Positions 290-14,006 of a stretch of DNA of 14,006 nt are shown one piece after another (within the stretch, counting starts at the first letter, position 1; each line of letters begins with the position of its first letter). Source of the DNA: Escherichia coli (GTDB lineage Bacteria; Pseudomonadota; Gammaproteobacteria; Enterobacterales; Enterobacteriaceae); NCBI RefSeq assembly GCF_003334255.1, contig NZ_QOWU01000080.1; one strand, given 5' to 3'. The translations under genes were made by a program, and so were the position numbers. The notes under the pieces were generated by a model. That model ran no database searches. It was given only the letters and a program-made list of their open reading frames with translations, and had not been told where the DNA came from.

Positions 290-820
290 TCAGGCTTTCC
301 ACGTAGAATGCAGCAATTTTTCATCAGTCAGGCTCATAATCAACCCCACTTTTTTTTCTTTATACAGCAAGAAATCAGCACGTCCAGTACATCCCTCTTC
401 CGCTTCTTGCCAGGTGGCCACCTGAGTGCGGAACTCATCATCAAACACAGACTTATCAGGCCATACCACCAGAGTTTTACCACGATAACTAATCTCAAAA
501 ATAAACTGTCCCCCTAAAGAGAAAGGGGCATCAGGGTGCCTTAAAGTAGGGTTTTGCAGGCAACGTCCTTCACGTACAGCGTGAGAAAGTATCTCTACAC
601 AATCCACAATTCCCGGACCGGGAAAACCCAGACTCCAGTAAAGCTCGCGGCGCATCACCGGTTGTTGCGGAGACAACAGAGAAAAAGCGTAGCGGCTCAC
701 ACGAATCATTAGTGCAGCAGCAATAACATTAGCGTTAGTCGTATATTTTAATAAATCCTGGCGCGTCAGAGTGATATCACCATCTTGATCCCGTACGGTT
801 ACGGTTAATTCGCTCATCAA
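290..820 (-). CDS. Hypothetical protein (176 aa), last gene of the ABC operon; paralog of the 3210-3767 product
   Basis: Long ORF directly abutting the binding-protein gene. Shares the motifs SLLSPQ, RREL, FPGxGxxDCxE and GxFxFExSYRxK with the 185-aa ORF. Confidence 0.6.
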
Positions 821-1762
821 TTACTGCTCCATAGCCTGTGGTAAAACAATATTGCTAACGTCAATTTCGTTGCGAATCATTCCATTTTCAATCATAAATT
901 GGATATCTTCTTTCATGCTGGTTATATCGTCCTGATTCAGACGCTGAGTGAAGTGAGACCGATTATACAATTTCTGTGCATCCTCAACGCTAATGCCCTG
1001 TACTTTTGCGCCTAATGCTATGGCTTCCGACTGATTTTTTTCTATCCATGTACTTGCCTCATCATGGGCAGCAATGACGACTTTAATCCAGTTCGGGTGT
1101 TTTTTAACTACCTTATCACTGGATGCCATGACCAATTTAGGTACAACCAAACCACTGGCGGTCGTCAGTACTTTAGCTCCTTCCTGTTCTGCTTTAATCA
1201 CCATGGTGGCAGCCAATAGTGCGGCATCAACCTGACTACTTTGTAAAGCCGCAAATGCCTGTGGCAAATCCATTTGAACAAACTGAACATCGTTCATGCT
1301 TAAACCATTTTTCACCAAAGCAGCCACCAACGTCTGATGTAAAACCGTGCCTTTAGGCCCTGCAATCTTTTTACCTTTTAATCCGGCAATAGAATTAACA
1401 CCATTCTTAGCCCCTACAATGGCAAAAGTATCGGTAGGACGAGAAACACCAGCGATGATCATCACAGGATTACCCTCGCTATTAGACATTAAAACTGAAG
1501 AAGTATTCATTACCCCTGCAATATCAAGATCACCGCTAGCTAGCGCCTGAGCCTGTTTGGCTCCGGAAGTAATTTCGTGCCATTCCACGTTTAATCCCAG
1601 CGATTCAGCCTGCTTTTCCAACAGGTTGTGCTCCTTCATTACAATCATTTGCAGATTAAATGGTGATTTAACATAGCTGATATCCAGCGTTTTATCATCC
1701 GCATGGGCCAGTCCAGAACTCAACAATGCAGAAAACAACGTGGTCAGAAGTATCTTTTTCAT
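821..1762 (-). CDS. ABC transporter periplasmic substrate-binding protein, NMT1/THI5 (SsuA/TauA-like) family
   Basis: 313 aa with an N-terminal signal peptide (MKKILLTTLFSALLSSGLAHA) and overall NMT1/SsuA-like character; sits in an operon with ABC ATPase and permease genes. Confidence 0.8.
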   Translation of the reverse strand: MKKILLTTLFSALLSSGLAHADDKTLDISYVKSPFNLQMIVMKEHNLLEKQAESLGLNVEWHEITSGAKQAQALASGDLDIAGVMNTSSVLMSNSEGNPVMIIAGVSRPTDTFAIVGAKNGVNSIAGLKGKKIAGPKGTVLHQTLVAALVKNGLSMNDVQFVQMDLPQAFAALQSSQVDAALLAATMVIKAEQEGAKVLTTASGLVVPKLVMASSDKVVKKHPNWIKVVIAAHDEASTWIEKNQSEAIALGAKVQGISVEDAQKLYNRSHFTQRLNQDDITSMKEDIQFMIENGMIRNEIDVSNIVLPQAMEQ

Positions 1763-1786
1763 AGTTCATCCTTATTCATAAGCAGT

Positions 1787-2455
1787 TTATAAATGGGTCA
1801 GTATTCGTTGTTTTAATTCTGTGTGGGAAATATCATGATGGCGGCGGTATACCACCGCAATTCGTCCTTGACTCATAACTAAAATCTGCTGACCAATAGT
1901 TATCGCTTCATTGAGGTCATGAGTGACAAACAAACAACTAATGTTTTGATGAGTAATCAGTCGAATTAACATTTCTTGCTGTTCTGACCGCGTGATGGCA
2001 TCCAGGGCTGCAAAAGGTTCATCCATCAGTAATACTTGTGGTTTTTGCAGAAGAGCTCTTGCGATTCCTACTCGCTGCGCCATACCACCAGAAAGTTCAT
2101 GAGGCATCAGGGAATAACTTTCTCCCAGTTGAACCTGTTGTAATACTTCAGCAATTTTGGCTTGTTTAATTTTTCTGCTACATAAAAATGGCAAAGCTAA
2201 TGCCAGATTTTCAGCTACCGTTAACCATGGTAATAAACGTGGTTCCTGAAACACCATGGCACACTGTGATGCAGAGATGTTGACTGTTCCGCTATCCGGT
2301 TTAATCAAACCTGCTACAATACGCAATAAAGTGGATTTTCCTCCACCAGAAGGGCCGAGCAAGCAAATAATTTCTCCCGGCGGCAGCGAAAGTGAGACAT
2401 CGATCAATACCTGTTTTTGCTGATAGCTTTTATTAATATGAGATAATGCTATCAT
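1787..2455 (-). CDS. ABC transporter ATP-binding protein (NitT/TauT family)
   Basis: Walker A GPSGGGKST, ABC signature LSGGMAQRVGIARAL, Walker B LLMDEPFAALD, H-loop FVTHD. Confidence 0.9.
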   Translation of the reverse strand: MIALSHINKSYQQKQVLIDVSLSLPPGEIICLLGPSGGGKSTLLRIVAGLIKPDSGTVNISASQCAMVFQEPRLLPWLTVAENLALALPFLCSRKIKQAKIAEVLQQVQLGESYSLMPHELSGGMAQRVGIARALLQKPQVLLMDEPFAALDAITRSEQQEMLIRLITHQNISCLFVTHDLNEAITIGQQILVMSQGRIAVVYRRHHDISHTELKQRILTHL

Positions 2456-3213
2456 CAGGTTGTTACCTCCGGAAAACGACGACGTAATAGCAGCACCAAT
2501 GAGCGATAAAATAGCGTATCCAATAGCCAGCCAATTAAACCAATGGTTAAAATACCCACTATTACAGCATCAGTACGCATCATCTCTTGTGAATCAATAA
2601 TCAAGTATCCCAGTCCACTGCTGGCAGCGATCAATTCTGCGCCAATTAATGCTCGCCAGCTATAACCAAAAGCCAGACGAAAACCAGTAACCACAGAAGG
2701 AGTGGCGCTTGGAATTACAATCGCCAACAGATAGCGTAAAGGTGAAAGATTCAGGCTAATGGCCAATTCCTTATGGGCTGTACTGACGCGACGCAGTCCA
2801 TCACGAGTGTTAAGAAATATGGGAAACACCGAGGCCAAAACAATAATCGAGAGTTGTGTCGTCTCCCCAATACCCAACCATAAAATCAATAATGGCGTCA
2901 TGGCCAATGGGGGGATCATACGAAAGAGTGCCAAAGGCGCGGACAATAACTGTTCCAGCCATGAGTAACGAGCAACCAAACCGGCCAACATCGTTCCAAG
3001 ACAACAACTCAGACAAAACCCTTCAAACACTCGTAATAATGAAGTGGATATATGACGAGGCAATGCGCCAATTTGCCACATATTTACGGCGGAATAAAAC
3101 ACCGTTATGGGTGATGGTAGTAAATAAGCAGAGATTAACTCCAAACTTGATAACAATTGCCAGTAAATCAATAGTAATATTGGTGTCAGCAACGGTCGCC
3201 AATAGCGCATCAC
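2455..3213 (-). CDS. ABC transporter permease (NitT/TauT family)
   Basis: 252-aa hydrophobic multi-helix protein; its stop overlaps the ATPase start and its start overlaps the stop of the upstream 185-aa ORF, suggesting translational coupling. Confidence 0.85.
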   Translation of the reverse strand: MMRYWRPLLTPILLLIYWQLLSSLELISAYLLPSPITVFYSAVNMWQIGALPRHISTSLLRVFEGFCLSCCLGTMLAGLVARYSWLEQLLSAPLALFRMIPPLAMTPLLILWLGIGETTQLSIIVLASVFPIFLNTRDGLRRVSTAHKELAISLNLSPLRYLLAIVIPSATPSVVTGFRLAFGYSWRALIGAELIAASSGLGYLIIDSQEMMRTDAVIVGILTIGLIGWLLDTLFYRSLVLLLRRRFPEVTT

Positions 3214-3767
3214 AATACCTGTATTGAATCCATTGGTGAGACGGTTAACAGCGTATTAGCTAACTGATATTTAGCCACCATCCACTGTCGTTGAACTTCT
3301 GGTGTTGCATCTGGCTGCTTACTTGCACGCCCTATTTTCAAAAATTCAGTAGTTGGCTGCCCGCCTACCGGAGCTAATGATACTTTTTTACTACGATAAC
3401 TAAATTCAAAATAGAAACGTCCAGTAAGACCTTGCTGTGCTTCGGTTTGGTCAAAGTCGACATCTAATATAAAACGATTTTCCGACACCATGCGGGTTAC
3501 CAACTCAAAACAATCACGGGCCCCCCTCCCCGGAAAGGCTGTAAATAATGCTAATTCCCGACGTTGCAGGGGCTCATCCTGCGGTGATAGCAATGAAATA
3601 GCCCTTTGTAGTAACCGAAATCCCAGTACTACGCCACCAACAGCATCATACCCATGATAATTGAAGGCATCCTGAACCGAGAAAGAAAAAAGCTGATGAT
3701 TATCTGCAACGTTTAGGGATGGCATAACCCATTGGGATACAGGGATAAGACCTGGATTAGTACTCAT
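3210..3767 (-). CDS. Hypothetical protein (185 aa), first gene of the ABC operon; paralog of the 290-820 product
   Basis: ORF overlaps the permease start by 4 bp; shares conserved blocks with the 176-aa ORF (see finding). Confidence 0.6.
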   Translation of the reverse strand: MSTNPGLIPVSQWVMPSLNVADNHQLFSFSVQDAFNYHGYDAVGGVVLGFRLLQRAISLLSPQDEPLQRRELALFTAFPGRGARDCFELVTRMVSENRFILDVDFDQTEAQQGLTGRFYFEFSYRSKKVSLAPVGGQPTTEFLKIGRASKQPDATPEVQRQWMVAKYQLANTLLTVSPMDSIQVL

Positions 3768-3857
3768 GTCAACCGCCTTTCTCTTTTTATAGTAAGAGTT
3801 ATTCCCTCATGTCGATTCTAGATACAAATACAAACAACATCAATTCTCATTCCCTCT

Positions 3858-4143
3858 TCAGGTTATTTGCCTCGCTGTTTTTCTCACTGTCTCCGTTATG
3901 GTGTACACCACCTCTTCCAGTAACCGACACTTCGCCGAACTCAGGAAACCGTAGTACCTCACCATACGGAACCCCTGAGGTAGCCAGGAGGCTGCAAATC
4001 GGGGTGTGGCAGAATATGAGCTTTCAGAGTAACCATCCAGAATGAGTTCCCATGTCACACAACCTGGAGCACCAGAAAGTCCACACCAGAATGGTGAAAG
4101 AGGTTCTGAAAGCCGTCGCCAGAGCCAATAATCACCCTTATCA
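3858..4143 (-). pseudogene. Possible IS91-family (Y2 rolling-circle) transposase C-terminal remnant
   Basis: Minus-strand translation contains LPQGFRMVRYYGFLSSAKCRLL, resembling the conserved C-terminal block of IS91-family transposases as recalled (LPKGF.RIRHYGFLAN); ends abruptly at the IR at 4144. Confidence 0.3.
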
Positions 4144-4181
4144 GGGGTTCCGTGGGAATTTCTGCGATAACACCCGCTAAG
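4144..4181 (+). repeat. Tn3-family 38-bp terminal inverted repeat (left)
   Basis: GGGGTTCCGTGGGAATTTCTGCGATAACACCCGCTAAG. Confidence 0.65.
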
Positions 4182-4318
4182 CGATTCCTCCCTGACGGAA
4201 ATCACTTGTTTTCCGTCAGGTCCTGCAGTTGAAGAAAATTGAATCCATAAATCTGTGATTTTTTGCGTGACAAACCCTGTCGGAATGAGAAACTGTACGG
4301 AAACTTCAATTTTAAGGT

Positions 4319-4504
4319 TTGTCGTACATTCGCAGCCAGGGGATCATTATACCGGAAGAGCTCTTGTCCAGTGTATCACCACTACCATGGGGTCATATCT
4401 CACTCACTGGAGATTACCTGTGGAACGAAATTGACCATCCCCTTGAACGATACAGGCCACTTCGTACTAATCGCTTCAATCCAAAGAACTTCACTTTTCC
4501 TTAG
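4319..4504 (+). pseudogene. tnpA: Tn3-family transposase TnpA C-terminal remnant
   Basis: Translation ends PLPWGHISLTGDYLWNEIDHPLERYRPLRTNRF, resembling the extreme C-terminus of Tn3-family TnpA (LGWEHINLTGDYLW...RPLRP as recalled); stop codon lies inside the right IR, as in Tn3-family transposons. Confidence 0.5.
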
Positions 4505-4537
4505 CGTGTGTTATCGCAGAAATGCCCACGGAACGCC
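4500..4537 (-). repeat. Tn3-family 38-bp terminal inverted repeat (right)
   Basis: Reverse complement reads GGCGTTCCGTGGGCATTTCTGCGATAACACACGCTAAG. Confidence 0.65.
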
Positions 4538-4879
4538 GTTATGGCCGTGAATGTGCCGACGACCTGGATTAATTCTGGTATGAGTGAGTTTGACAGCCGG
4601 TTGTTTGCAGCCATTAACGATATGCTGCTGGATATGCTGGCCGCTGTTGCCAGAAGGGACTATGAACAACGGCGGGAACGCCAGAAACAGGGGATAGAGA
4701 AAGCAAGGAAAGACGGCAAATATAAAGGGCGTAAACCTAATCAAGCCAGACATGATGCAATTATCAGGTTGATAGAAAGTGGCAGCTCCTGGACACAGGT
4801 ACAGAAGGTGCTAGGGTGCAGCCGCGGCACAATCAGTAGCGCAATAAAACGTAAATCCCGGCAATCCTCCGGTGAGTAG
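4508..4879 (+). pseudogene. Serine recombinase (resolvase/invertase) C-terminal fragment; catalytic N-terminal domain absent
   Basis: Contains LLDMLAAVARRDYEQRRERQKQGIEKARKDGKYKGRKP followed by an HTH-like tail (SWTQVQKVLGCSRGTISSAIKR); convincing similarity begins around 4570-4580; no S-T-x-x-Q catalytic region upstream. Confidence 0.5.
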
Positions 4880-4994
4880 GGTAGGGTGAGCTCAATAAAC
4901 TGGCTGACGTTATTTATTAGGGAGGTGCTGAGGTGGATATTTTTAAAAAGCAAATTGAATGTTGTAACTAATGAATATCAAAATAAAAGGCCGC

Positions 4995-5174
4995 TTACGC
5001 GACCTCAGCCTTTTGCGGTTTTGGCTTGGTGATATACCACGATAGACAACCGACAATAAAACTCATGAACATTCCAGTAAAACGATCATCGATGCCTGGA
5101 AACAGGCAACCGACAAACATCGCAACAGGGAAAGGAAGAAGTAAACAGCGCCCCAAAATGCTCATAAAATCCAT
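4995..5174 (-). CDS. Small hydrophobic membrane protein (59 aa), unknown function
   Basis: ATG at 5174 is preceded by AGGAGG with a 4-nt spacer; product MDFMSILGRCLLLPFPVAMFVGCLFPGIDDRFTGMFMSFIVGCLSWYITKPKPQKAEVA. The six-frame track extends it to a GTG at 5210 inside a hairpin, which I consider unlikely. Confidence 0.4.
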   Translation of the reverse strand: MDFMSILGRCLLLPFPVAMFVGCLFPGIDDRFTGMFMSFIVGCLSWYITKPKPQKAEVA

Positions 5175-5192
5175 AAATCCTCCTTTGTTAAA

Positions 5193-5219
5193 GGGCAGGA
5201 AGCGGTGCACTTCCTGCCC
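5193..5219 (-). terminator. GC-rich hairpin, probable terminator of the toxin transcript (possibly bidirectional)
   Basis: 10-bp perfect stem GGGCAGGAAG / CTTCCTGCCC with a 7-nt loop, about 20 nt downstream of the toxin stop; followed by TTTAA on the minus strand. Confidence 0.5.
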
Positions 5220-5240
5220 TTAGTTACGTTTCCGCAGTCA

Positions 5241-5336
5241 TCAATCGATGAACTGACGGATCAGTTCCAGAACTGCAATCAGCGCGTTTGCAACGGCGAC
5301 CACAGCCCTGAGAACGATGATTAACAGGTTAATCAT
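5241..5336 (-). CDS. Candidate type I toxin: 31-aa hydrophobic peptide, DinQ/TisB-like
   Basis: Not in the ORF track (below size cutoff). Translates to MINLLIIVLRAVVAVANALIAVLELIRQFID; GGAG sits 6 nt upstream of the ATG; resembles DinQ as recalled (shared IIVL and ALIA.LELIR blocks). Confidence 0.5.
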   Translation of the reverse strand: MINLLIIVLRAVVAVANALIAVLELIRQFID

Positions 5337-5413
5337 CCGTTTCTCCAGGTTGATACTGGAGGAAGTTGCCGTTGCTTGCTCATACATCGCCTGTCACAAC
5401 GGCTCTCTCACAT

Positions 5414-5453
5414 TGTTGGATGTAGAGTACCTTCCCCCTGCCAGAGCACTGAA
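5414..5453 (+). repeat. Copy 1 of a ~40-bp repeat, within the putative toxin leader
   Basis: TGTTGGATGTAGAGTACCTTCCCCCTGCCAGAGC... is roughly 85% identical to the copy at 5658-5697. Confidence 0.6.
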
Positions 5454-5623
5454 CACAGCACCACCTGTTTGTTCAGCCAGGGCTTTAATTCGTTCATACC
5501 CAGATAGCGCAGGGTTTAGAAGCAAGGGAGGCACACTGTACAGCGCCAACACAAAGATTATACAGATGCACGCATAAAATTCATTTAAAGAAATGGCCAT
5601 TGACAGACAATCTGAAGTCAAAC

Positions 5624-5650
5624 TAGACAACTGGTGTCTAGTGCCATAAT
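5624..5650 (+). promoter_or_regulatory. Putative sigma70 promoter for the small RNA
   Basis: TAGACA (5624-5629), 15-nt spacer, extended -10 TGcCATAAT (5642-5650); alternative -10 TAATAT at 5647-5652 with a 17-nt spacer. Confidence 0.3.
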
Positions 5651-5656
5651 ATTGTG

Positions 5657-5748
5657 GATGTTGGATGTAGAGTATCTTCCTCCAGTCAGAGCCACCAACT
5701 CAGGACTGGAAAACACGAAAAAGCCCGATTACCAGTCGGGTTTTTTTG
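5657..5748 (+). ncRNA. Candidate ~90-nt small RNA (AgrB-like antitoxin), divergent from the toxin gene
   Basis: Promoter-like elements upstream and a strong intrinsic terminator at the 3' end; body contains repeat copy 2, which is imperfectly complementary to the minus-strand toxin transcript at copy 1. Confidence 0.4.
5722..5748 (+). terminator. Rho-independent terminator
   Basis: Stem GCCCGA / TCGGGT with loop TTACCAG, followed by seven T; A-tract upstream, so possibly bidirectional. Confidence 0.6.
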
Positions 5749-6149
5749 TGCCTGTCGTTCGACTGTTCTTCCGTTTTTTCCCTTCATTTGGGGGATTTTC
5801 TTTCAGTTTTTTTGTTAAGTCCAATGCTGCCGGTCGCGTTGGCCAACAGATCAATGCCGTTATCGGCGTTTCCATTAATCCTTTTTTTCAGTAAGTTGCA
5901 GCACAAAAGATGATTAAAAAGCTATCAGTTTTTTTGATGGATACAGTAGCGGCGGTACGCTGCGTGAAATCTGAGGTTTTCGGGTAGGATTGGTCGCGAG
6001 AATTTACGAGAGAGCGACGGGCGGTTTCTGCACTGAGACAAGATACAACCGTTCTTTTTTTTCCCCTTCACGCCGTAGCTGAGCGATCTCGTCTCTGTTA
6101 CGCTGAAGTTCAATGATAGTCGTAATATTTAACTCTTTACCTCTTTCGT

Positions 6150-6166
6150 GGTATACCAGGTATACC
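6150..6166 (+). promoter_or_regulatory. Tandem 8-bp palindromes GGTATACC-a-GGTATACC, candidate operator upstream of the EamA gene
   Basis: Two identical self-complementary octamers separated by 1 nt, about 17 nt upstream of the start codon and just 5' of the AGGAGG ribosome-binding site. Confidence 0.3.
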
Positions 6167-6182
6167 GAAAAAAGGAGGCGTG

Positions 6183-7070
6183 ATGAACAACCAAAACTAT
6201 TTTTTAGTCCGTTGTATGTACGTAATTCTGATGGGACTAGGTTTTCCTATCATGAGATATATGAGTTTAAACTTTGACACATTAAATAACAATGCTATCA
6301 GATTTATCTCTGGAGGTGTTATTTTTTGCATTGTCTGCTTATTAAAGTACAATAACCACTTAAAAAATATAAATATTAAAACAATACTACTGCTTTTTGT
6401 TCTTTCTATTTTCATGACATGTAACATGTTCTTTTTTATTAATGGAATAAAGCATACATCAGCCTTATCAGGGAGTATTTTTAGTATATTAGCAATGCCA
6501 TTAGGTATTCTTGTCGCCAGTTTATTTTTTATTGACGAACGAGAAAGAGCACTTAGCTATAAATTTATAACAGGTTCATTAATTGCAATTATTGGATCAT
6601 TTATTTTTGTTTTTAATGGTTACTCTTTGGATTCCGGCTCATTTAGTTATACAGGCTTTATATTTTTAACCATCGCAATTTGCATTCAATCGATACAAAA
6701 TGTCATTGTTAAAATTGTAGCACAATACCTTCCCGCAATTGTAATTAGTGCGTCAACAGCAACAATTTCAGGGTTAATGTTTTTATTATTAGCAATAAAA
6801 ACAGGCGTTATCACAGAATTATCAGTAACATCCAAAGAATTATTAATATATTTGGTTCTTGCTGGCATATATGGAATGATGACAGGTATGCTTATGGCAT
6901 TTTACATAGTAAAAACACAAGGGGTAACTATTTTTAATATAACTCAATTACTAATCCCCGTATCAACAGGAATTTTTGGATACATCACTTTAGGTGAAAA
7001 AGTTGATCTTATTCAGGCAACAGGAGCAGTGATCATCATTGCTGGCTGTATTTTTGCAACAAAGCGATAA
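6183..7070 (+). CDS. DMT-superfamily (EamA-like) integral membrane transporter
   Basis: ~295 aa, about 10 predicted hydrophobic helices in two repeated halves; AGGAGG 4 nt upstream of ATG 6183 (the track's 6180 start is a GTG one codon upstream); very AT-rich. Confidence 0.8.
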   Translation: MNNQNYFLVRCMYVILMGLGFPIMRYMSLNFDTLNNNAIRFISGGVIFCIVCLLKYNNHLKNINIKTILLLFVLSIFMTCNMFFFINGIKHTSALSGSIFSILAMPLGILVASLFFIDERERALSYKFITGSLIAIIGSFIFVFNGYSLDSGSFSYTGFIFLTIAICIQSIQNVIVKIVAQYLPAIVISASTATISGLMFLLLAIKTGVITELSVTSKELLIYLVLAGIYGMMTGMLMAFYIVKTQGVTIFNITQLLIPVSTGIFGYITLGEKVDLIQATGAVIIIAGCIFATKR

Positions 7071-7080
7071 TGAGGTATTT

Positions 7081-8076
7081 ATGTATAATGTTGGTATTAT
7101 TGGGCTAGGGCAAATAGCTTATTCAATCGATAATGACCCGGCAAGAAAGATTACCTGGTCTCATATAAATGCATACAAAAAGTCTAAAGATACGCAAGTT
7201 ATATCAATCTGTGACATAGATGAAACACAAGTCAAAAAGATATCACAGGAATGTGATATCTATTCAGGGTATACCGATTACAGAGAAATGCTCAAAAATG
7301 AAGACCTCGATATAGTTAGTATTTGCACACCGATAAATACTCATGTTCAAATAATAAAAGACTGCATAAAGCATAATGTCAAAGCTATATTTTGTGAGAA
7401 GACAATATCATACAGTCTGGATGATTCGAGTGAAATCGTTGAATTATGCAAGAAAAATAATGTAGTACTGGCTGTTAATCATGTCCGTCGATGGGATGAT
7501 TTTAATCAAAAAATAAAAAATATAATTACACAAGATAATTATGGCGATATTTATACTATTGACTGCTATGGTGGAACGGCACTCCATACCAGTACAAGTC
7601 ACTTAATTGACTTAATGTGCTTCTTTTCTGATTCAGAGCCAGAATGGAGCATTGGATGTAAACAACAGGATTATGTTCGTAATGTTCACGGTGTACATGA
7701 TTACGGGGGCACAGGGTTTATAAAATTTAAAAATGGAATTATTGGGATAGTAAAATCAAATTCATCTTCTGAATTTAATATTTGCTTTGAAATTGATATT
7801 GCATGTAAAAATGGAAGAGTTATTATAACTGACGCTGGAGATACATGTGAGTTTTATAAATTTACACACAGTAATAGTTCGAGTGGTAGTCATTACAAAA
7901 CGTTATCTCTCGTACATAAAATATATAAAAATCAAACTGAAAGAATGATCAATGCTGTAAATAATATCGTTATGGCATTAAAAAAAGATCAGCAAGTCAA
8001 ATCAACAGGTCAAACATCATTAGCTTCCATCAAAATAATCAGTGGTATTTTATCTGAGGAAAAAACATTATTCTAA
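7081..8076 (+). CDS. Gfo/Idh/MocA-family NAD(P)-dependent oxidoreductase
   Basis: N-terminal Rossmann motif MYNVGIIGLGQIA; GAGG 5 nt upstream of ATG 7081. The track's 7039 start overlaps the previous gene and lacks a ribosome-binding site. Confidence 0.8.
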   Translation: MYNVGIIGLGQIAYSIDNDPARKITWSHINAYKKSKDTQVISICDIDETQVKKISQECDIYSGYTDYREMLKNEDLDIVSICTPINTHVQIIKDCIKHNVKAIFCEKTISYSLDDSSEIVELCKKNNVVLAVNHVRRWDDFNQKIKNIITQDNYGDIYTIDCYGGTALHTSTSHLIDLMCFFSDSEPEWSIGCKQQDYVRNVHGVHDYGGTGFIKFKNGIIGIVKSNSSSEFNICFEIDIACKNGRVIITDAGDTCEFYKFTHSNSSSGSHYKTLSLVHKIYKNQTERMINAVNNIVMALKKDQQVKSTGQTSLASIKIISGILSEEKTLF

Positions 8077-8081
8077 TTTGA

Positions 8082-8113
8082 TATCCTCCATGTACAGAGA
8101 AACGTGGAGGATA
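8082..8113 (+). terminator. Hairpin after the oxidoreductase gene (terminator-like, no clear U-tract)
   Basis: 11-bp stem TATCCTCCATG / CGTGGAGGATA with one G-U pair and a 10-nt loop, 6 nt after the stop codon. Confidence 0.35.
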
Positions 8114-8126
8114 CCAGTAAATCAGG

Positions 8127-8160
8127 GGAAGCTTGTCCCCCCCAGAAAGAACAAGCTTCC
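8127..8160. terminator. Second hairpin between convergent genes
   Basis: Perfect 10-bp inverted repeat GGAAGCTTGT / ACAAGCTTCC with a 14-nt C-rich loop; could serve the minus-strand gene ending at 8170. Confidence 0.35.
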
Positions 8161-8169
8161 GAATACAAT

Positions 8170-8436
8170 TTATCGTCTCTTCGCCCACTCTTTTTCATCA
8201 TCGGTGAGTTGTTCTTTATGCAAATAATCACCAGGAACAGGGGGAGGGGTAACCAGTTTAGGACGTCCATTATCATCACGAACTGTCACCAGACCAACTA
8301 CTTCTCCATTTTCTTTAAGTGCCCATGCAGCCAGTTGATATAGTGTTGACTTTCCTGTTACACCAGAGACATTATCGTGACGAAAATACCAGTCTGTCGC
8401 AGGGATAATTTGTTTATAAGGTGATGATTCACTCAT
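8170..8436 (-). CDS. Hypothetical protein (88 aa)
   Basis: ATG at 8436 preceded by GAGG with an 8-nt spacer; the track's longer 133-aa version has no ribosome-binding site at its start. Product MSESSPYKQIIPATDWYFRHDNVSGVTGKSTLYQLAAWALKENGEVVGLVTVRDDNGRPKLV... Confidence 0.5.
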   Translation of the reverse strand: MSESSPYKQIIPATDWYFRHDNVSGVTGKSTLYQLAAWALKENGEVVGLVTVRDDNGRPKLVTPPPVPGDYLHKEQLTDDEKEWAKRR

Positions 8437-8688
8437 AGCTTTTTCCTCAAAAAAATCTCCGGTATAAAACCAGAGGCTTGTTATAGGGGTCAGTTTGGAG
8501 ATCGGAAAATTTTGTTCGTTAAGCACATTATTTAACCAATAGATATGCGTAACGGATTGATTTTGCGTCAACGGCTATCGCTTTTAAGTTATCGCCATTG
8601 CGGTATTGCATTTAGGTTATCCGATAGAGGTCAAATCCTCTGAAAATGCCGTATAGCACGGGAGTACACCCTACCGCAATAGCGCAAC

Positions 8689-8704
8689 CGTACAATATTG
8701 TACG
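8689..8704. promoter_or_regulatory. Perfect 16-bp palindrome CGTACAATATTGTACG
   Basis: Self-complementary; half-site resembles the TGTACA operator motifs near the phd promoter; lies in the divergent intergenic region. Confidence 0.3.
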
Positions 8705-8865
8705 TTTCCCAAACGCAGCCCATCAGGCGCGGAACTCATCGAGGCGCGGGAATAAAATCCCATTCAGATGCCGGATAGATTCAAGCAAGCCCACTTATCG
8801 TCAAAATCGGTGTTGCAAAAACGGGAGTGACCATAGATTCGTTTCCCAAACCGCCCCCTTTTATA

Positions 8866-8899
8866 TTGACCAGAAGTGTTGTACAGTTTAATTGTACAA
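8866..8899 (+). promoter_or_regulatory. phd-doc promoter with two palindromic TGTACA operator sites
   Basis: TTGACC at 8866-8871; two TTGTACA-containing palindromes centred about 13 bp apart (8879-8886 and 8892-8899), immediately upstream of the ribosome-binding site. Confidence 0.45.
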
Positions 8900-8916
8900 C
8901 TCAAAGAGGAAGCACT

Positions 8917-9141
8917 ATGTTTACATGTAACTATAGCCATGCTCGCGATAACCTGGCCTCGTTGCTCGAGCTGGCGGTTGATGAAAATCAGCCAGTTGAG
9001 ATTCAGCGCCGTAAAGGTGGCGCAGCTGTACTGGTTGATAAAGACGCTTTTGAACGATACCGTAAAGCGGCTCTTGATGCTGAGTTTGCTGAGATCATGC
9101 AAAGTCATGGGACGGCCTATACGGAGCTTTCTAAGCGATGA
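8917..9141 (+). CDS. phd: Phd-family antitoxin
   Basis: 74 aa, MFTCNYSHARDNLASLLELAVDENQPVEIQRRKGGAAVLVDKDAFERYRKAALDAEFAEIM..., closely resembling P1 Phd as recalled; GAGGA 6 nt upstream; stop overlaps the doc start (ATGA). Confidence 0.85.
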   Translation: MFTCNYSHARDNLASLLELAVDENQPVEIQRRKGGAAVLVDKDAFERYRKAALDAEFAEIMQSHGTAYTELSKR

Positions 9142-9524
9142 AATTCGTTAGTTCACAGGAAGTGATTGAGTTTCATGACCGCTTGATTTCGCGTGATGGT
9201 GGCGTGGCGGGTATGCCAGAACCCGGTCGCGCTGACGCGATCATTCATCGTGTTTTGAACATGTATCATTATGAAGGTGTGACAGATATTATGGATCTGG
9301 CTGCCGTGTATTTAGTTGCTATTGCTCGTGGTCACATTTTCAACGATGCAAATAAGCGAACAGCCTTGTTTGTTGCACAGGTTTTTTTAAAACGGAATGG
9401 TGTACATATTATTAGTTCACGTATTTCGTTTGATGAAATGCAAATTATCGCTTTGAATGCTGCAACAGGAGAATATAACTGGAAGATGGTTTCTGACCAT
9501 CTTAAAGCCATTATTCTAAATTAG
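9138..9524 (+). CDS. doc: Doc toxin (Fic/Doc family)
   Basis: 128 aa with the Doc-type motif HIFNDANKRTA and GMPEPGRADAII, resembling P1 Doc; translationally coupled to phd. Confidence 0.9.
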   Translation: MKFVSSQEVIEFHDRLISRDGGVAGMPEPGRADAIIHRVLNMYHYEGVTDIMDLAAVYLVAIARGHIFNDANKRTALFVAQVFLKRNGVHIISSRISFDEMQIIALNAATGEYNWKMVSDHLKAIILN

Positions 9525-9631
9525 ATATAGATATCCAATCAGCAGCATTTTACAATCTCCTGAGCAATGTAAAAATCATATATCTTTTTACTATATAATT
9601 TCTGGCGTATGTGCTCAATTCAGACCTGACA

Positions 9632-9693
9632 CCCTTCCGCTTCCTCGCCCACTCGCCCACTCGCTCACTACCGTTCGGTCGCTGCGGCGAGCG
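9632..9693. other. ColE1/pMB1-like plasmid backbone segment (region flanking ori; possibly a primosome assembly site)
   Basis: CCCTTCCGCTTCCTCGC...CACTCGCTCACT...CGTTCGGTCGCTGCGGCGAGCG resembles the pBR322/pUC segment TCTTCCGCTTCCTCGCTCACTGACTCGCTGCGCTCGGTCGTTCGGCTGCGGCGAGCG, recalled from memory. Confidence 0.4.
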
Positions 9694-9776
9694 TTTGTAA
9701 GTTTTTCAATACAGACGACGTTCTCCCTGGCTGATTAATATTGTGTAATAATACATATCGTTTTCAGGAATAATGG

Positions 9777-10034
9777 GGGGTTGAGGCCCAATCGTACGAG
9801 ATCGTACGCTAAGTTCATTTTTTGAGCAGAAGAGGGGGGGGGTAAAGAAAACGAGGGTTTTGTTTACTCTTCCCGTCAATGCCAGTAGCCATGCGGTTTC
9901 AGGGACTTTCAGTGTTAATAAACTCGGTAATCAAATCAACGTAAACCTGCCTAACAACGCCACGACTTTATTGACTTAAAATCATATAGTTAGCTTCTTA
10001 GCGTACGTTTCCGCTCCATTGGGCTTCAAACCCC
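9777..10034. mobile_element. 258-bp element bounded by gamma-delta (Tn1000)-like IRs; IS101-like miniature element, or a composite of IR remnants
   Basis: Left IR 9777-9813 GGGGTTGAGGCCCAATCGTACGAGATCGTACGCTAAG and right IR 9997-10034 (reverse complement GGGGTTTGAAGCCCAATGGAGCGGAAACGTACGCTAAG) are inverted with outer GGGG and inner TAAG; no ORF inside. Confidence 0.5.
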
Positions 10035-10120
10035 TATACCAGGCAAGACGCATTCGCCTTGCCCGTAAATATCTGAACGGTAAAAAGGTTATGGAAGAAA
10101 CCGGGGAAAATACGCCCCCG

Positions 10121-10399
10121 TCAGCGTAAGGATTTCTTTTGCAGCTCCAGAGACTCCAGTTTTTTACGCAAATCCTCTCTTTTTTTGGCATCTCTGGTGC
10201 CTGCCAGTTTAGCTCTCAACTCATCGATCTGAAGCTGTATCTCCAGCCTTTTACTGAACATTTTCTGTCTGGCATTAACATCAGCAACAATGCCGTTTTT
10301 TGTCTTCTCGGCCTTTTGTTGAAAAACATTGCTGTCCGCATGACTGGCGACCGAAGCAGAAAGCACACTAAAAAGCAGGACTGGCACACATTTTTTCAC
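10121..10399 (-). CDS. Small secreted protein (92 aa) with a signal peptide and a charged coiled-coil-like mature region
   Basis: GTG start with AGGAA 8 nt upstream; MKKCVPVLLFSVLSASVASHA signal-like N-terminus followed by a K/E/R/L-rich sequence. Confidence 0.5.
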   Translation of the reverse strand: MKKCVPVLLFSVLSASVASHADSNVFQQKAEKTKNGIVADVNARQKMFSKRLEIQLQIDELRAKLAGTRDAKKREDLRKKLESLELQKKSLR

Positions 10400-10501
10400 G
10401 GGATTATTCCTGACTCATTGACCATCAAATCACATTGGGGTAAACCGACGTATGATAAGAGATACTCTTCGGAGATATAACCCCCTGAGTATCAGGATGA
10501 A

Positions 10502-10539
10502 AAACGCAAGGAGATGTTTATGGGGTCCGCTTGGAAAAC
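10502..10539 (+). repeat. Tn3-family 38-bp terminal IR (Tn21/Tn501-like), left end of the tnpR-tnpA transposon
   Basis: GGGGTCCGCTTGGAAAACGGAAAATATCCCACGCTAAG; compare the Tn21 IR as recalled (GAAAACGGAAAATA...CACGCTAAG). Lies just beyond the tnpR stop. Confidence 0.6.
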
Positions 10540-10567
10540 GGAAAATATCCCACGCTAAGACTATTTT

Positions 10568-11158
10568 CTATACAGTAACAGTTTGCTGTTTCGCTCTAAC
10601 TCTCAGAATTGTTTGCCGTGTGGTTCGGAATTCCCTGGCAATAGCACTTATACTTGCCCCAGACTTAATGCGTTCGAGTACCTTCTGTTTTTGTTCTTCA
10701 TTTAATACCGGTGGGCGACCAAAACGTTTTCCTGCATCCCGTGCTCTTGCTATCCCTGAATAAGTTCGTTCAAGTAAAAGATCTCGTTCAAATTCAGCGA
10801 CCGCTGAAATCACTTGCATTGTCATTTTTCCTGCCGGACTGGTCAGATCAACACCACCTAATGCCAGGCAATGCACCCTGATGCCAGATTCGGTCAGTTG
10901 CTCCACTGTTTTCCTGATATCCATTGCATTACGACCGAGGCGATCCAGTTTTGTGACTATCAATACATCGCCACTTTCCAGACGATCAAGCAACCGGTTA
11001 AAACTAGGACGTTCACTGGCTGCTACTGAGCCACTAATTTGTTCTTCGATTATTCGTTGGGGTCTGACGTTAAAACCCGCGCTTTCGATTTCCCGACGTT
11101 GATTTTCGGTCGTCTGTTCCAGAGTGGAAACCCGACAATAGGCAAAAATTCGAGACAT
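10568..11158 (-). CDS. tnpR: Serine recombinase, Tn3-family resolvase TnpR
   Basis: 196 aa; N-terminal catalytic motif [22 protein letters not shown]-helix region, C-terminal HTH; divergent from tnpA. Confidence 0.9.
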
Positions 11159-11318
11159 AGTGAGATCTTCTGTACGAAATAGGTGTACATATTATAATGC
11201 ATGTCCGAAAGTAATTTCGCTGACTTTCGGATATATCTGTTTAACAATGTCCGAAACCGGTCGTTTTCGGTCACAACAAATCCATAACATATGAAAACTT
11301 TACACGAGGGAAGCATTC
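11159..11318. promoter_or_regulatory. res site region with divergent tnpR/tnpA promoters
   Basis: Repeated imperfect inverted half-sites (TGTCCGAAAGTA...GACTTTCGGATA; TGTCCGAAACC...TTTTCGGTCACA) and a palindromic ATTATAAT giving a -10-like hexamer on both strands. Confidence 0.5.
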
Positions 11319-13037
11319 ATGCCACGGCGACAAATACTGAGTAGTGAAGAGCAAGCTCGCCTGCTGGTTATACCAGATGATGAAATTATTCTGACCAGAA
11401 TGTGTTTTCTTTGTGATAAAGATATTGCTCTCATTAATAAGCACCGGCGTCCAGCTAATCGCCTGGGCTTTGCGGTATTACTCTGTTACCTGCGTGGGCC
11501 TGGATTTGTTCCGGACAAAAATAATGTTCCCCACTGTGGCGTTGTATCCAGAATTGCTTCAAGACTGAAGCTTCAGCCCGATTTATGGCATGAATATGCA
11601 GCCAGAGAGCAAACCCGCTGGGAGCATCTGGCTGAACTTTATCGCTACCTGAAATTATCTCCGTTCAGCCGAACTCTGCAAAAAGACTGCATTCGGCATC
11701 TGCATTCCTATGCCATGCGAACAGATAAAGGATTTACTCTGGCGGAGGAAATGCTCAGTTGGCTACATAACAATAATGTTATTTTCCCGTCGGTTGATGT
11801 GATCGAACGGACGCTTGCCGAAGCCGTCACACTTGCTGACAGATCTGTTTTTTCGGCACTTACGACACAACTGGGAAAGCAGCATAGATCTGCACTCGAC
11901 AGCCTGCTCATATCAGAAGGGGAACAACCTTCCCGACTTGCGTGGCTACTTCAGCCTCCCGGTAAAATTAACGGTAAAAACGTGCTGCAACATATCGATC
12001 GACTTAATTCTATCACCGCGCTGGAATTACCTGATGGTATTGAGCTTTCCGTTCACCAGAACAAATTACTCAAACTGGCGCGTGAGGGCCGAAAAATGAG
12101 CAGCAGAGATCTGGCAAAATTCACCGATATCAGACGTTACGCTACGCTGGTTTGTGTCATTCAGGAAGCCAGAGCAACATTGACTGATGAAGTTATCGAG
12201 CTACACGAACGCATTATGGGCGGTCTGTTCAGCCAGGCAAAACGCACACAAGCCGAGAGGCTTCAGTTAACAGGCAAACTTATCCAGAGCAAGTTAAGAC
12301 AATATGTTACTGTCGGTCAGGCGCTACTGCATGCCAGAAAGTCAGGTGAAGATCCCTGGGCCGCGATAGAAGATGTTATTCCCAGGCAGGAGTTCGTCAA
12401 CAGCCTGGAAGAAACACAGTTGCTGTCCCGTAAAGGTAATTTCGATCCTCTTCACCTGATCACCGAAAAATACAGCACACTTCGAAAATACGCTCCACGA
12501 ATGTTGTCAGCATTGCAGTTTGTAGCGACACCTGCGGCGCAGCCGCTCAGCGATGCACTGGATACTATAAGGGAAATATACCGTAAGCAGCTTCGTAACG
12601 TTCCGCCTACAGCGCCAACAGCATTTATTCCTGAAAGCTGGCGAAAACTGGTATTAACGCCTTCAGGCATCAATCGAAAATACTATGAGTTTTGTGTACT
12701 GAATGAACTCAAGGGGGCGTTACGTTCCGGAGATATTTGGGTAAAAGGGTCGCGTCGTTACAGAAATTTTGATGATTATCTTATCCCGGTCACTGAATTT
12801 GATAAATCCCGACAAAATGACCAGTTACAACTGGCTGTGCAGACTGATTGCCATGCATATCTTCAGGCCCGTATGACGCTTCTTGCATCTCGTCTGGAAG
12901 AAGTTAACGCAATGGCTCTTGCCGGTGAGCTGCCGGATGTTGATATTTCAGATAAAGGAGTGAAAATCACTCCGCTGGAGAACGGGGTTCTGAGGTGTAC
13001 TGGCAATAGCGGACACTACCATTTGTTCTTTTTTTAA
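11319..13037 (+). pseudogene. tnpA: Tn3-family transposase TnpA, N-terminal ~557 aa only; interrupted by IS insertion at about 12990
   Basis: N-terminus MPRRQILSSEEQARLL...RPANRLGFAVLLCYLR closely resembles Tn3-family TnpA; full-length TnpA is about 1000 aa. The last ~15 codons (LRCTGNSGHYHLFFF) are read from the IS end. Confidence 0.85.
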
Positions 13038-14006
13038 GCAGCCATCTGATGATATTTTTCCCTGAAGGCTGCCGGGGAGATATTCCCCAGACGAGAGTGA
13101 CGACGCTGACGATTGTAGAAAATCTCAATGTATTCCCGTATTACTGAGATGGCTTCATCCCGGTTATTAAAACGATAGTGGCTCAGGCTCTCATTTTTCA
13201 GCGTTCCCCAGAAGCTTTCCATCGGAGCGTTGTCGTAACAGTTACCTTTACGCGACATTGATGTTTTCAGACCAAACTGCTCCTGTATGACCCGGTAATC
13301 GTATGCGCAGTACTGTGAACCTCGATCAGAGTGGTGGATTAGCCCGGCAGGTGGGCGCTGGCTCCTGAGCGCCATAAACAGGGCTTTACCTGTCAGCTCT
13401 TTTGTCATGCGCTCTCCCATGGCGTAGCCGACAATTTCGCACGTATAAACATCTTTGATGCCAGCGAGGTACAACCATCCCTCCTGTGTGGCAACATACG
13501 TCAGGTCCGCCACCCAGACCTGATTTGGTGCTGTAGGAGCGAACGTCTGGTTCAGCAGATTTGGCGCAACTGGCAGATTGTGGTTCGAGTTCGTAGTCGC
13601 TCTGAACTTGCGTTTCTGCTTACAGCGTAGCCTTAGCTCCTTACGAAGACGTGCCAGTTGGTCACGACCAACGATGATGCCATTCTCTGCCAGCTCCGTC
13701 TGGAGCCGCCGGGTTCCATATGTTTCGCGAGTGCGGATATGTGCCACCTTAATCTCCAGTTTTAGCCGCTCATCACTTTGTTTTCTGTCTGAGGGTTCAT
13801 GCTGTACCCAGTTGTAATAACCGCTCCTGGATACACCAAATACCTGACACATCGCTTCAATGGGAAATTGTTGTCGCCATTGTTCGATTAACGCGTATTT
13901 TTCAGCGACTCCTGTGCAAAATACGCTGTTGTAGATTCAATCTGTCAATGCAACACCCCTTTCAATTATCTCTTTCGGTGTTTTGAACTTCAGTGTCTTT
14001 CTCGGT
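12991..14006 (-). mobile_element. IS3-family insertion sequence (3' part with intact orfB; orfA apparently disrupted or absent), runs off the window
   Basis: IS terminus at 12991 (TGAGGTGTACTGGCAATAGCGGACAC) resembles IS3 ends as recalled; orfB intact; only ~17 codons of an orfA-like C-terminus (TAYFAQESLKNTR) precede stops in every frame. Confidence 0.7.
13034..13852 (-). CDS. IS3-family transposase OrfB (DDE integrase)
   Basis: 272 aa with VSRSGYYNW near the N-terminus, WVADLTYV, HHSDRGSQY and CYDNAPMESFWGTLK (DDE catalytic core). Confidence 0.85.
   Translation of the reverse strand: MCQVFGVSRSGYYNWVQHEPSDRKQSDERLKLEIKVAHIRTRETYGTRRLQTELAENGIIVGRDQLARLRKELRLRCKQKRKFRATTNSNHNLPVAPNLLNQTFAPTAPNQVWVADLTYVATQEGWLYLAGIKDVYTCEIVGYAMGERMTKELTGKALFMALRSQRPPAGLIHHSDRGSQYCAYDYRVIQEQFGLKTSMSRKGNCYDNAPMESFWGTLKNESLSHYRFNNRDEAISVIREYIEIFYNRQRRHSRLGNISPAAFREKYHQMAA

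Follow-up and report, generated by a model that had tools for sequence, protein, structure and literature searches.

Hha and YmoA are stand-alone partners of H-NS. In the backbones of IncX1 and IncX5 plasmids, hha forms part of a longer gene order, topB-hha-hns-upfA, in which all genes lie on one strand and about 50 nt separate hns from upfA. The last gene of this order has been named in the IncX1 plasmid pECTm80, where the gene directly after the H-NS-family gene mdbA was described as 'upfA, UpfA conserved hypothetical protein' (PMC3332091). UpfA is already known and catalogued as a sequence entity, and in the literature searched we found no functional study of, or experiment on, any member of its family; it is among the few never-studied conserved backbone genes of clinically important IncX resistance plasmids. 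The topB-hha-hns 'stealth' module has been linked to conjugation rate and host fitness in IncX3 (PMC11880322). The deletion screen of that IncX3 study was set aside as evidence on upfA, because the homology of its rs00140 to upfA is not established.

Here, we analysed an 88-codon reading frame on the minus strand of a 14,006-nt stretch of Escherichia coli plasmid DNA (contig NZ_QOWU01000080.1, in the following the window) and found that it is almost certainly the upfA orthologue of the IncX1/IncX5 backbone, lying within an IncX1-derived fragment (Table 1). Since the window holds 28 open reading frames of 80 aa or more, the length of the frame is not significant on its own; the case for a real gene is a comparative one. 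The original prediction had proposed a gene for an 88-aa protein with a plausible ribosome-binding site and start and with a protein-like composition, and these proposals were borne out. The frame is intact, and its translation (8436..8170) reads MSESSPYKQIIPATDWYFRHDNVSGVTGKSTLYQLAAWALKENGEVVGLVTVRDDNGRPKLVTPPPVPGDYLHKEQLTDDEKEWAKRR followed by a stop codon, with DWYFRHDN, LAAWALKENGEVVGLV and PPPVPG, so that the motifs quoted earlier are confirmed. RefSeq/PGAP annotates identical coordinates (WP_012605122.1, hypothetical protein), and identical DNA (100%) occurs on five complete E. coli plasmids. A lack of homologues, together with a lack of expression, had been named beforehand as a reason to give the gene up; instead, a search of 5.8 billion proteins returned 66 close homologues of the window protein, and a profile run against 1.84 billion cluster representatives assigned 342 clusters to the family at E <=1e-3, 143 of these at <=1e-10. 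Against the IncX1 and IncX5 orthologues, dN/dS amounts to 0.06-0.11 at a dS of 0.28-1.6 (Nei-Gojobori). Almost all aligned homologues share the first Met, which supports the ATG at 8436 as the start, and the AGGA core of the ribosome-binding site is retained in the orthologous IncX1 and IncX5 regions. A longer frame of 133 aa from a TTG at 8571 was rejected, because its extension overlaps the transposon inverted repeat and is not conserved in homologues.

Table 1. Features of the window around upfA, and domains fused to UpfA in its relatives
Feature	Position	Strand	Remarks
IncX1-derived backbone fragment (resolvase remnant, 59-aa ORF, dqlB, cargo slot, upfA)	4538..8485	.	98% match
Inverted repeat, GGAAGCTTGT / ACAAGCTTCC	8127..8160	minus	starts 10 nt past the stop codon; read from the sequence
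upfA CDS, 88 aa + stop	8170..8436	minus	translation, PGAP, homologues, dN/dS, AF2 model
Ribosome-binding site GAGGA	8444..8448	minus	7 nt upstream of the ATG; read from the sequence
Terminator-like hairpin, 7 bp stem, then U-run	8457..8475	minus	remnant of the hns-upfA spacer; terminator scan
Left 38-bp terminal inverted repeat, Tn3-family transposon	8486..8523	plus	GGGGTCAGTTTGGAGATCGGAAAATTTTGTTCGTTAAG
FitA-like RHH (PF22513)	N-terminal to UpfA		IncX7, Erwinia, Yersinia, Citrobacter
KfrA_N (PF11740)	N-terminal to UpfA
KorA HTH part (PF16509; only positions 1-54 of the 84 in the model)	N-terminal to UpfA		185-aa proteins, Halomonas ICE
Unclassified HTH-like head	N-terminal to UpfA		weak support
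PaaA2 antitoxin segment (PF21217 / NF050103)	C-terminal to UpfA		one case

The window protein is 93-95% identical in amino acid sequence to IncX1 proteins (E 1e-49 to 1e-54), and similar proteins are common on plasmids of Escherichia, Salmonella and Shigella. Its similarity to the named UpfA proteins extends over the full length, and it agrees in length and motifs with the IncX1 UpfA of pECTm80 and of Salmonella Dublin (B1MU02). The family motifs PAxDW[YF]F, AAWAL, G-x3-GL and PPxxGxYxH are all present in a protein of the family's usual length (~85-90 aa), as are all the residues that we found conserved across 127 sequences, i.e. W16, A36, W38, G44, G48, L49, L61, P65, G69 and Y71. A remnant of the hns-upfA spacer is kept as well. 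Unlike IncX1 upfA, the window copy does not lie directly 3' of hns in a topB-hha-hns-upfA module but is cut off from hns by the end of a Tn3-family transposon; the missing hns is a secondary rearrangement and therefore no argument against orthology.

The curated libraries gave a different picture from sequence space. The window protein has no match in Pfam even at E<=10, none in NCBIfam at E<=1 and none in PADLOC, and a sequence search of the PDB found no relative. Hence the earlier statement that the protein cannot be placed in a family is right for Pfam, NCBIfam and PADLOC and wrong for sequence space, where it belongs to UpfA with its 342 clusters. The recommended HMM and structure-based searches divided in the same way: the HMM libraries stayed empty, and Foldseek against AFDB50 returned family members as its top matches, including Q8RSI0, 'UpfA protein'. 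Several other names were considered and discarded. A PHROG match to a tail-fibre assembly protein is marginal (E 0.01) and was taken as chance, as was the GNAT chain 2atr (E 0.68). KfrB, the IncP survival protein that partners KfrA, was dropped at an hhalign probability of 0.1%. The label 'methionyl-tRNA formyltransferase', widespread on entries of the family, is an annotation error: the window protein has 88 aa against ~315 aa and matches neither the N-terminal nor the C-terminal domain of the formyl transferase.

The IncX1-derived fragment itself matches IncX1 (megablast, ~98%) in two pieces over window ~4538-8456 (query 339-4257 of window 4200-8490), with upfA in one piece and the stretch from the resolvase remnant as far as dqlB in the other. 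In the slot 3' of upfA, IncX1 carries a pair of ApeA-HEPN and RiboL-PSP-HEPN genes (L007 6440-8607), replaced in the window by an AT-rich DMT-transporter/Gfo-Idh-MocA cassette, and IncX5 carries ArdR directly downstream together with a SprT-like gene (L024 5463-6517). Beyond the slot follow dqlB (a DinQ-like type I toxin), the 59-aa ORF and the resolvase. Compared across these IncX-type backbones, the slot between upfA and dqlB is a cargo hotspot. The original prediction had drawn on the position of the gene beside the AT-rich cassette, an argument that lapses with the different cargo of the same slot in other plasmids. The cassette of the window (6184-8076, ~30% GC) comprises a DMT transporter and a Gfo/Idh/MocA oxidoreductase. 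In the window, the gene of the latter (7039-8076) forms a single 345-aa ORF that begins with TTG; for the same region in pSTEC17_183-b, PGAP gives a partial pseudogene and a shorter CDS. The dqlB of the window (~5242-5338, minus strand) carries a frameshift according to the annotation of the source plasmid, and an intact dqlB or dinQ accompanies upfA in the IncX1, IncX5 and IncX7 backbones.

Is UpfA bound to a particular partner gene? By tblastn, ~290 PLSDB plasmids have a UpfA homologue, 228 of them predicted to be conjugative. A near-full-length upfA is found in 98 of 5,426 complete E. coli genomes, almost always on plasmids, there is no tblastn match in 50,697 phage records, and a scan of species-representative genomes gave one locus only. 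The family also occurs without hns, namely in the trb operon of IncP-1 plasmids, in ICEs and beside a DNA methylase. From these contexts, about a dozen loci in all, the common denominator of the family is its occurrence on conjugative plasmids and ICEs of Proteobacteria and not any single partner gene. In IncX7, the UpfA domain carries an N-terminal FitA-like RHH, and the gene stands alone between parA and dinQ-hns-topB. Mainstream IncX4 plasmids appear to be devoid of a UpfA homologue, because only ~290 PLSDB records match and the RHH-fused form belongs to IncX7. TsxAB and PixR of IncX4, the latter a LuxR-type HTH protein (PMC8725589), were dropped as leads. Besides the near-full-length copies, there are ~230 complete E. 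coli records, most of them large plasmids, in which upfA is reduced to a 46-bp fragment of its 3' end (window 8170-8215) at ~91% identity, and nothing is annotated under this remnant in the records listed.

On its other side, upfA is bordered by the sequence GGGGTCAGTTTGGAGATCGGAAAATTTTGTTCGTTAAG, whose form GGGG...CGTTAAG we take to be that of a Tn3-family terminal repeat. An inverted partner repeat with 3 mismatches lies 7.8 kb away at 17413-17450 of the source plasmid (L001), where 0 were expected by chance. Each 38-bp repeat forms the tip of a 248-nt arm; the two arms are inverted and 90% complementary, and they enclose a resolvase, a Tn3-family transposase that IS600 interrupts, and phd-doc. 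The transposon comprises window 8486-14006 and continues beyond the window end (L001 9587-17450); because phd-doc lies between its arms, phd-doc is transposon cargo. In an alignment with IncX1 and IncX5, the repeat adjoins the point at which the stop codon of hns would stand. The transposon is flanked by TTATA on one side and by TACAG on the other, so that there is no target-site duplication, which indicates a further rearrangement after insertion. Sub-segments of the arm (~8486-8721 and ~8721-8869) match >5000 PLSDB plasmids at 84-98%, mostly from Klebsiella and Escherichia, and in most of the records listed nothing is annotated under the match; the segments 8486-8869 are probably a widespread Tn3-family end or a remnant of a res region.

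This arrangement bears directly on the role that had been proposed for the protein, i.e. that of an accessory or regulatory factor, here taken as a third component of the phd-doc toxin-antitoxin pair next to it. The geometry was described correctly: the plus-strand gene phd starts at 8917, and upfA is divergent from it at a distance of ~480 bp. Some relatives of UpfA also have antitoxin-type domains (RHH, PaaA2). However, the terminal repeat separates the two genes, and upfA and phd-doc are adjacent in only 5-6 near-identical plasmids, compared with ~290 plasmids that bear upfA and >2000 E. coli records that match parts of the queried phd-doc segment; the top partial matches among these contain phd-doc only, without upfA. 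Moreover, phd-doc is found in none of the homologue contexts inspected, and the locus does not fit the conserved co-occurrence and co-transcription expected of a third component of phd-doc. Based on the intervening repeat and the rarity of the adjacency, we reject the positional argument of the original prediction and, with it, the regulatory link; the co-occurrence analysis suggested at the time speaks against the link as well. The neighbourhood of upfA and phd-doc is thus an accident of transposition, and a function of UpfA within this toxin-antitoxin pair is hardly credible. What survives of the proposed accessory or regulatory role is a loose agreement with the DNA-binding fusions of relatives discussed below, and not the positional reasoning behind it.

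The insertion has also changed the surroundings from which upfA could be expressed. The spacer remnant retains a terminator-like hairpin (Table 1). At the same place in the IncX5 hns-upfA spacer there is a hairpin of different sequence, with a minimum free energy of -16.9 kcal/mol for the ~54-nt spacer, and in the IncX1 spacer (L010) the hairpin is weak. We speculate that the spacer hairpin may act as a partial terminator that sets the ratio of hns to upfA expression. The inverted repeat behind the upfA stop codon is possibly a 3' hairpin without a clear U-run; it was not called by the terminator scan, and IncX1 and IncX5 have a different inverted repeat in its place. Between the transposon end and the ATG of upfA, ~50 nt are left, and no sigma-70-like promoter was found upstream of upfA on the minus strand. 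Having lost hns and the operon promoter, and lying behind a terminator-like hairpin, the upfA of the window may be weakly expressed or silent.

It could even be a silent passenger, an IncX leftover without a role in its present plasmid, which is a serious possibility although we would not put it at even chances, and which is compatible with the best explanation given below. Next to the missing hns and operon promoter, the short leader with its hairpin and the lack of a promoter-like site, the ~230 E. coli records with the 46-bp remnant point to decay of the region in non-IncX plasmids. On the other hand, the reading frame is intact, the six carrier plasmids are nearly identical and have had too little time for visible decay, and read-through from the transposon end may still supply a transcript.

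What could UpfA do in the plasmids in which its native context is kept? The AF2 monomer model (pLDDT 86.5) shows seven strands and a helix, from which we infer that UpfA is a soluble domain of ~85 aa, all-beta apart from a helix at its C-terminus. We further modelled a tandem construct, in which a Gly/Ser linker of 25 residues joins two UpfA copies, with a 32-sequence alignment and obtained a pLDDT of 82 and a pTM of 0.74 over 201 residues, the linker itself having a pLDDT of 35. Since a pTM of 0.74 would be out of reach for two 88-residue domains that tumble independently, the copies are placed confidently against each other, and UpfA is predicted to form a homodimer. This prediction is based on the pLDDT and pTM of one linker-trick model, with PAE, contacts and a negative control outside its basis, and the concatenated alignment is of a kind in which intra-chain couplings can become false inter-chain contacts. 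The tandem model has no relative in the PDB. The strongly conserved aromatic and histidine residues W16, W38, Y71 and H73 suggest a surface for binding a ligand or partner beyond plain dimerisation. By analogy, UpfA may be likened to the C-terminal SH3-like domain of KorB, which is the dimerisation module of a plasmid regulator, and to further small beta-barrels through which plasmid regulators oligomerise.

Several domains are fused to UpfA in its relatives (Table 1). KorA oligomerises through its C-terminal part, KfrA through its coiled coil and ParD-type antitoxins through their N-terminal RHH, and the UpfA domain apparently sits where the oligomerisation domains of DNA-binding heads usually are. 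In the Halomonas ICE, the KorA-UpfA gene lies between a resolvase and a TraI_2 relaxase. From the positions in these fusions and the predicted dimer, we propose that UpfA acts as a dimerising partner or effector in regulatory and maintenance circuits of conjugative elements. A dimeric module that serves plasmid regulatory circuits as a partner or effector is the likeliest of the mechanisms considered; it is a tentative proposal built on models and fusion patterns, and we regard it as possible rather than probable. A bolder version, in which UpfA represents an undescribed fold and family, a dimeric beta-domain that occurs alone or fused to DNA-binding heads or antitoxin tails and serves as a co-regulator or as an anti-defence or establishment effector, seems rather unlikely to us.

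The same fusions could be read as signs of an addiction module. Some relatives of UpfA resemble type II antitoxins (FitA/ParD RHH, PaaA2) in carrying an RHH in front or PaaA2 behind, a RelE/ParE pair adjoins the family member in a P. syringae plasmid, and a gene for a dinQ-like type I toxin is near in IncX backbones, so that UpfA might be the toxin or the antitoxin of an unrecognised two-gene module. Unlike a type II antitoxin with its DNA-binding or antitoxin domain and adjacent toxin gene, the window protein has neither RHH nor PaaA2 and no conserved toxin neighbour. Indeed, no partner gene is conserved across the family: downstream we found a HEPN pair, ArdR, Gfo, trbP or a methylase, and upstream there is hns or another gene. 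The model moreover predicts a folded beta domain and not a disordered toxin-binding tail, and neither PADLOC nor NCBIfam gave a toxin-antitoxin match. We therefore regard an addiction module as improbable.

A second alternative comes from the IncP-1 plasmids pAKD1 and pEMT3, in which a family member annotated as TrbO lies between trbN and trbP in the Tra2 operon. This position, together with the topB-hha-hns-upfA block that comes after the type IV secretion genes in IncX backbones, would fit an accessory or modulator of the mating-pair-formation apparatus. The pEMT3 'TrbO' is ~41% identical to the IncX orthologues (tblastn), and the pAKD1/pEMT3 proteins have the motifs PATDWFYVH, VVGLIPV and YLHRDQLTEEE in common with the UpfA family. 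In contrast, R751 and the RP4-type plasmid pBS228 encode the classical TrbO, a hydrophobic 88-aa protein unrelated to UpfA, and two tblastn searches recover different plasmid sets. From the loci compared (L025 4998-5255, L027 2995-3261, L028 29577-29843 and L029 38429-38692), it looks as if a non-orthologous replacement under one gene name has taken place in IncP-1 Tra2 operons at the position called 'trbO'. Over-expression of RP4 trbO is reported to affect T4SS-mediated killing (PMC11045733), a phenotype that does not carry over to UpfA because the TrbO proteins of R751 and RP4 type are unrelated to it. UpfA has no signal peptide or membrane segment, and many family members are not near T4SS genes, which leaves a function in the secretion apparatus only a slim chance.

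More weight has to be given to a third alternative, in which UpfA is a self-regulated anti-defence or establishment effector whose N-terminal heads repress their own gene and whose beta domain inhibits a host factor. The fusions of anti-CRISPR and Aca proteins (Acr-Aca) serve as the model of such self-repressing heads. UpfA is small, soluble and confined to conjugative plasmids and ICEs, it has a conserved aromatic surface, and it borders a slot in which defence and anti-defence cargo is swapped. Genes known or suspected to act against defence are often near, such as ArdR and the SprT-like gene in IncX5 and a SprT-like gene on the L011 contig, where the family member follows an integrase. Further neighbours are an orphan C5 DNA methylase on a Vibrio contig, on which the family member lies among small ORFs and a TraF-family conjugation gene is present as well, and RadC and DUF3275 in the Halomonas ICE. 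However, no characterised protein with anti-restriction or anti-CRISPR activity turned up as a homologue (of the libraries searched, PADLOC is confined to defence systems), and UpfA is not acidic like DNA mimics, with ~13 D/E against 12 K/R. In IncX1 and IncX5, upfA lies 3' of hns in a maintenance module, and the UpfA-PaaA2 fusion is hard to account for by an anti-defence effector. On balance, we hold this alternative to be unlikely, albeit the main rival to the dimerising partner or effector proposed above.

In summary, the best explanation as a whole, to which we give somewhat less than an even chance, is a stranded IncX upfA orthologue whose product would be a dimerising regulatory partner or effector. 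For the window, the outcome is mainly a correction, in that upfA is a stranded piece of an IncX backbone and not an accessory of phd-doc. For the family, concrete and cheaply testable hypotheses follow from the fused domains, the predicted dimer and the missing fold relative; their payoff would be moderate, namely a new factor that assists plasmid regulation or establishment, and no new principle.

Hha/YmoA offers an analogy for the situation in IncX plasmids. There, UpfA would be a stand-alone co-factor that is co-produced with plasmid nucleoid-associated proteins, as Hha is for H-NS. Both are small stand-alone proteins from the same plasmid module, hha and upfA flanking hns in IncX1 and IncX5, and like Hha, UpfA would work through protein-protein contacts and not through catalysis. 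Such an H-NS-linked role cannot be general, since the family occurs without hns. UpfA differs from Hha in sequence and in fold, Hha being helical and UpfA all-beta according to its model, and an interaction of UpfA with H-NS is proposed here by analogy only.
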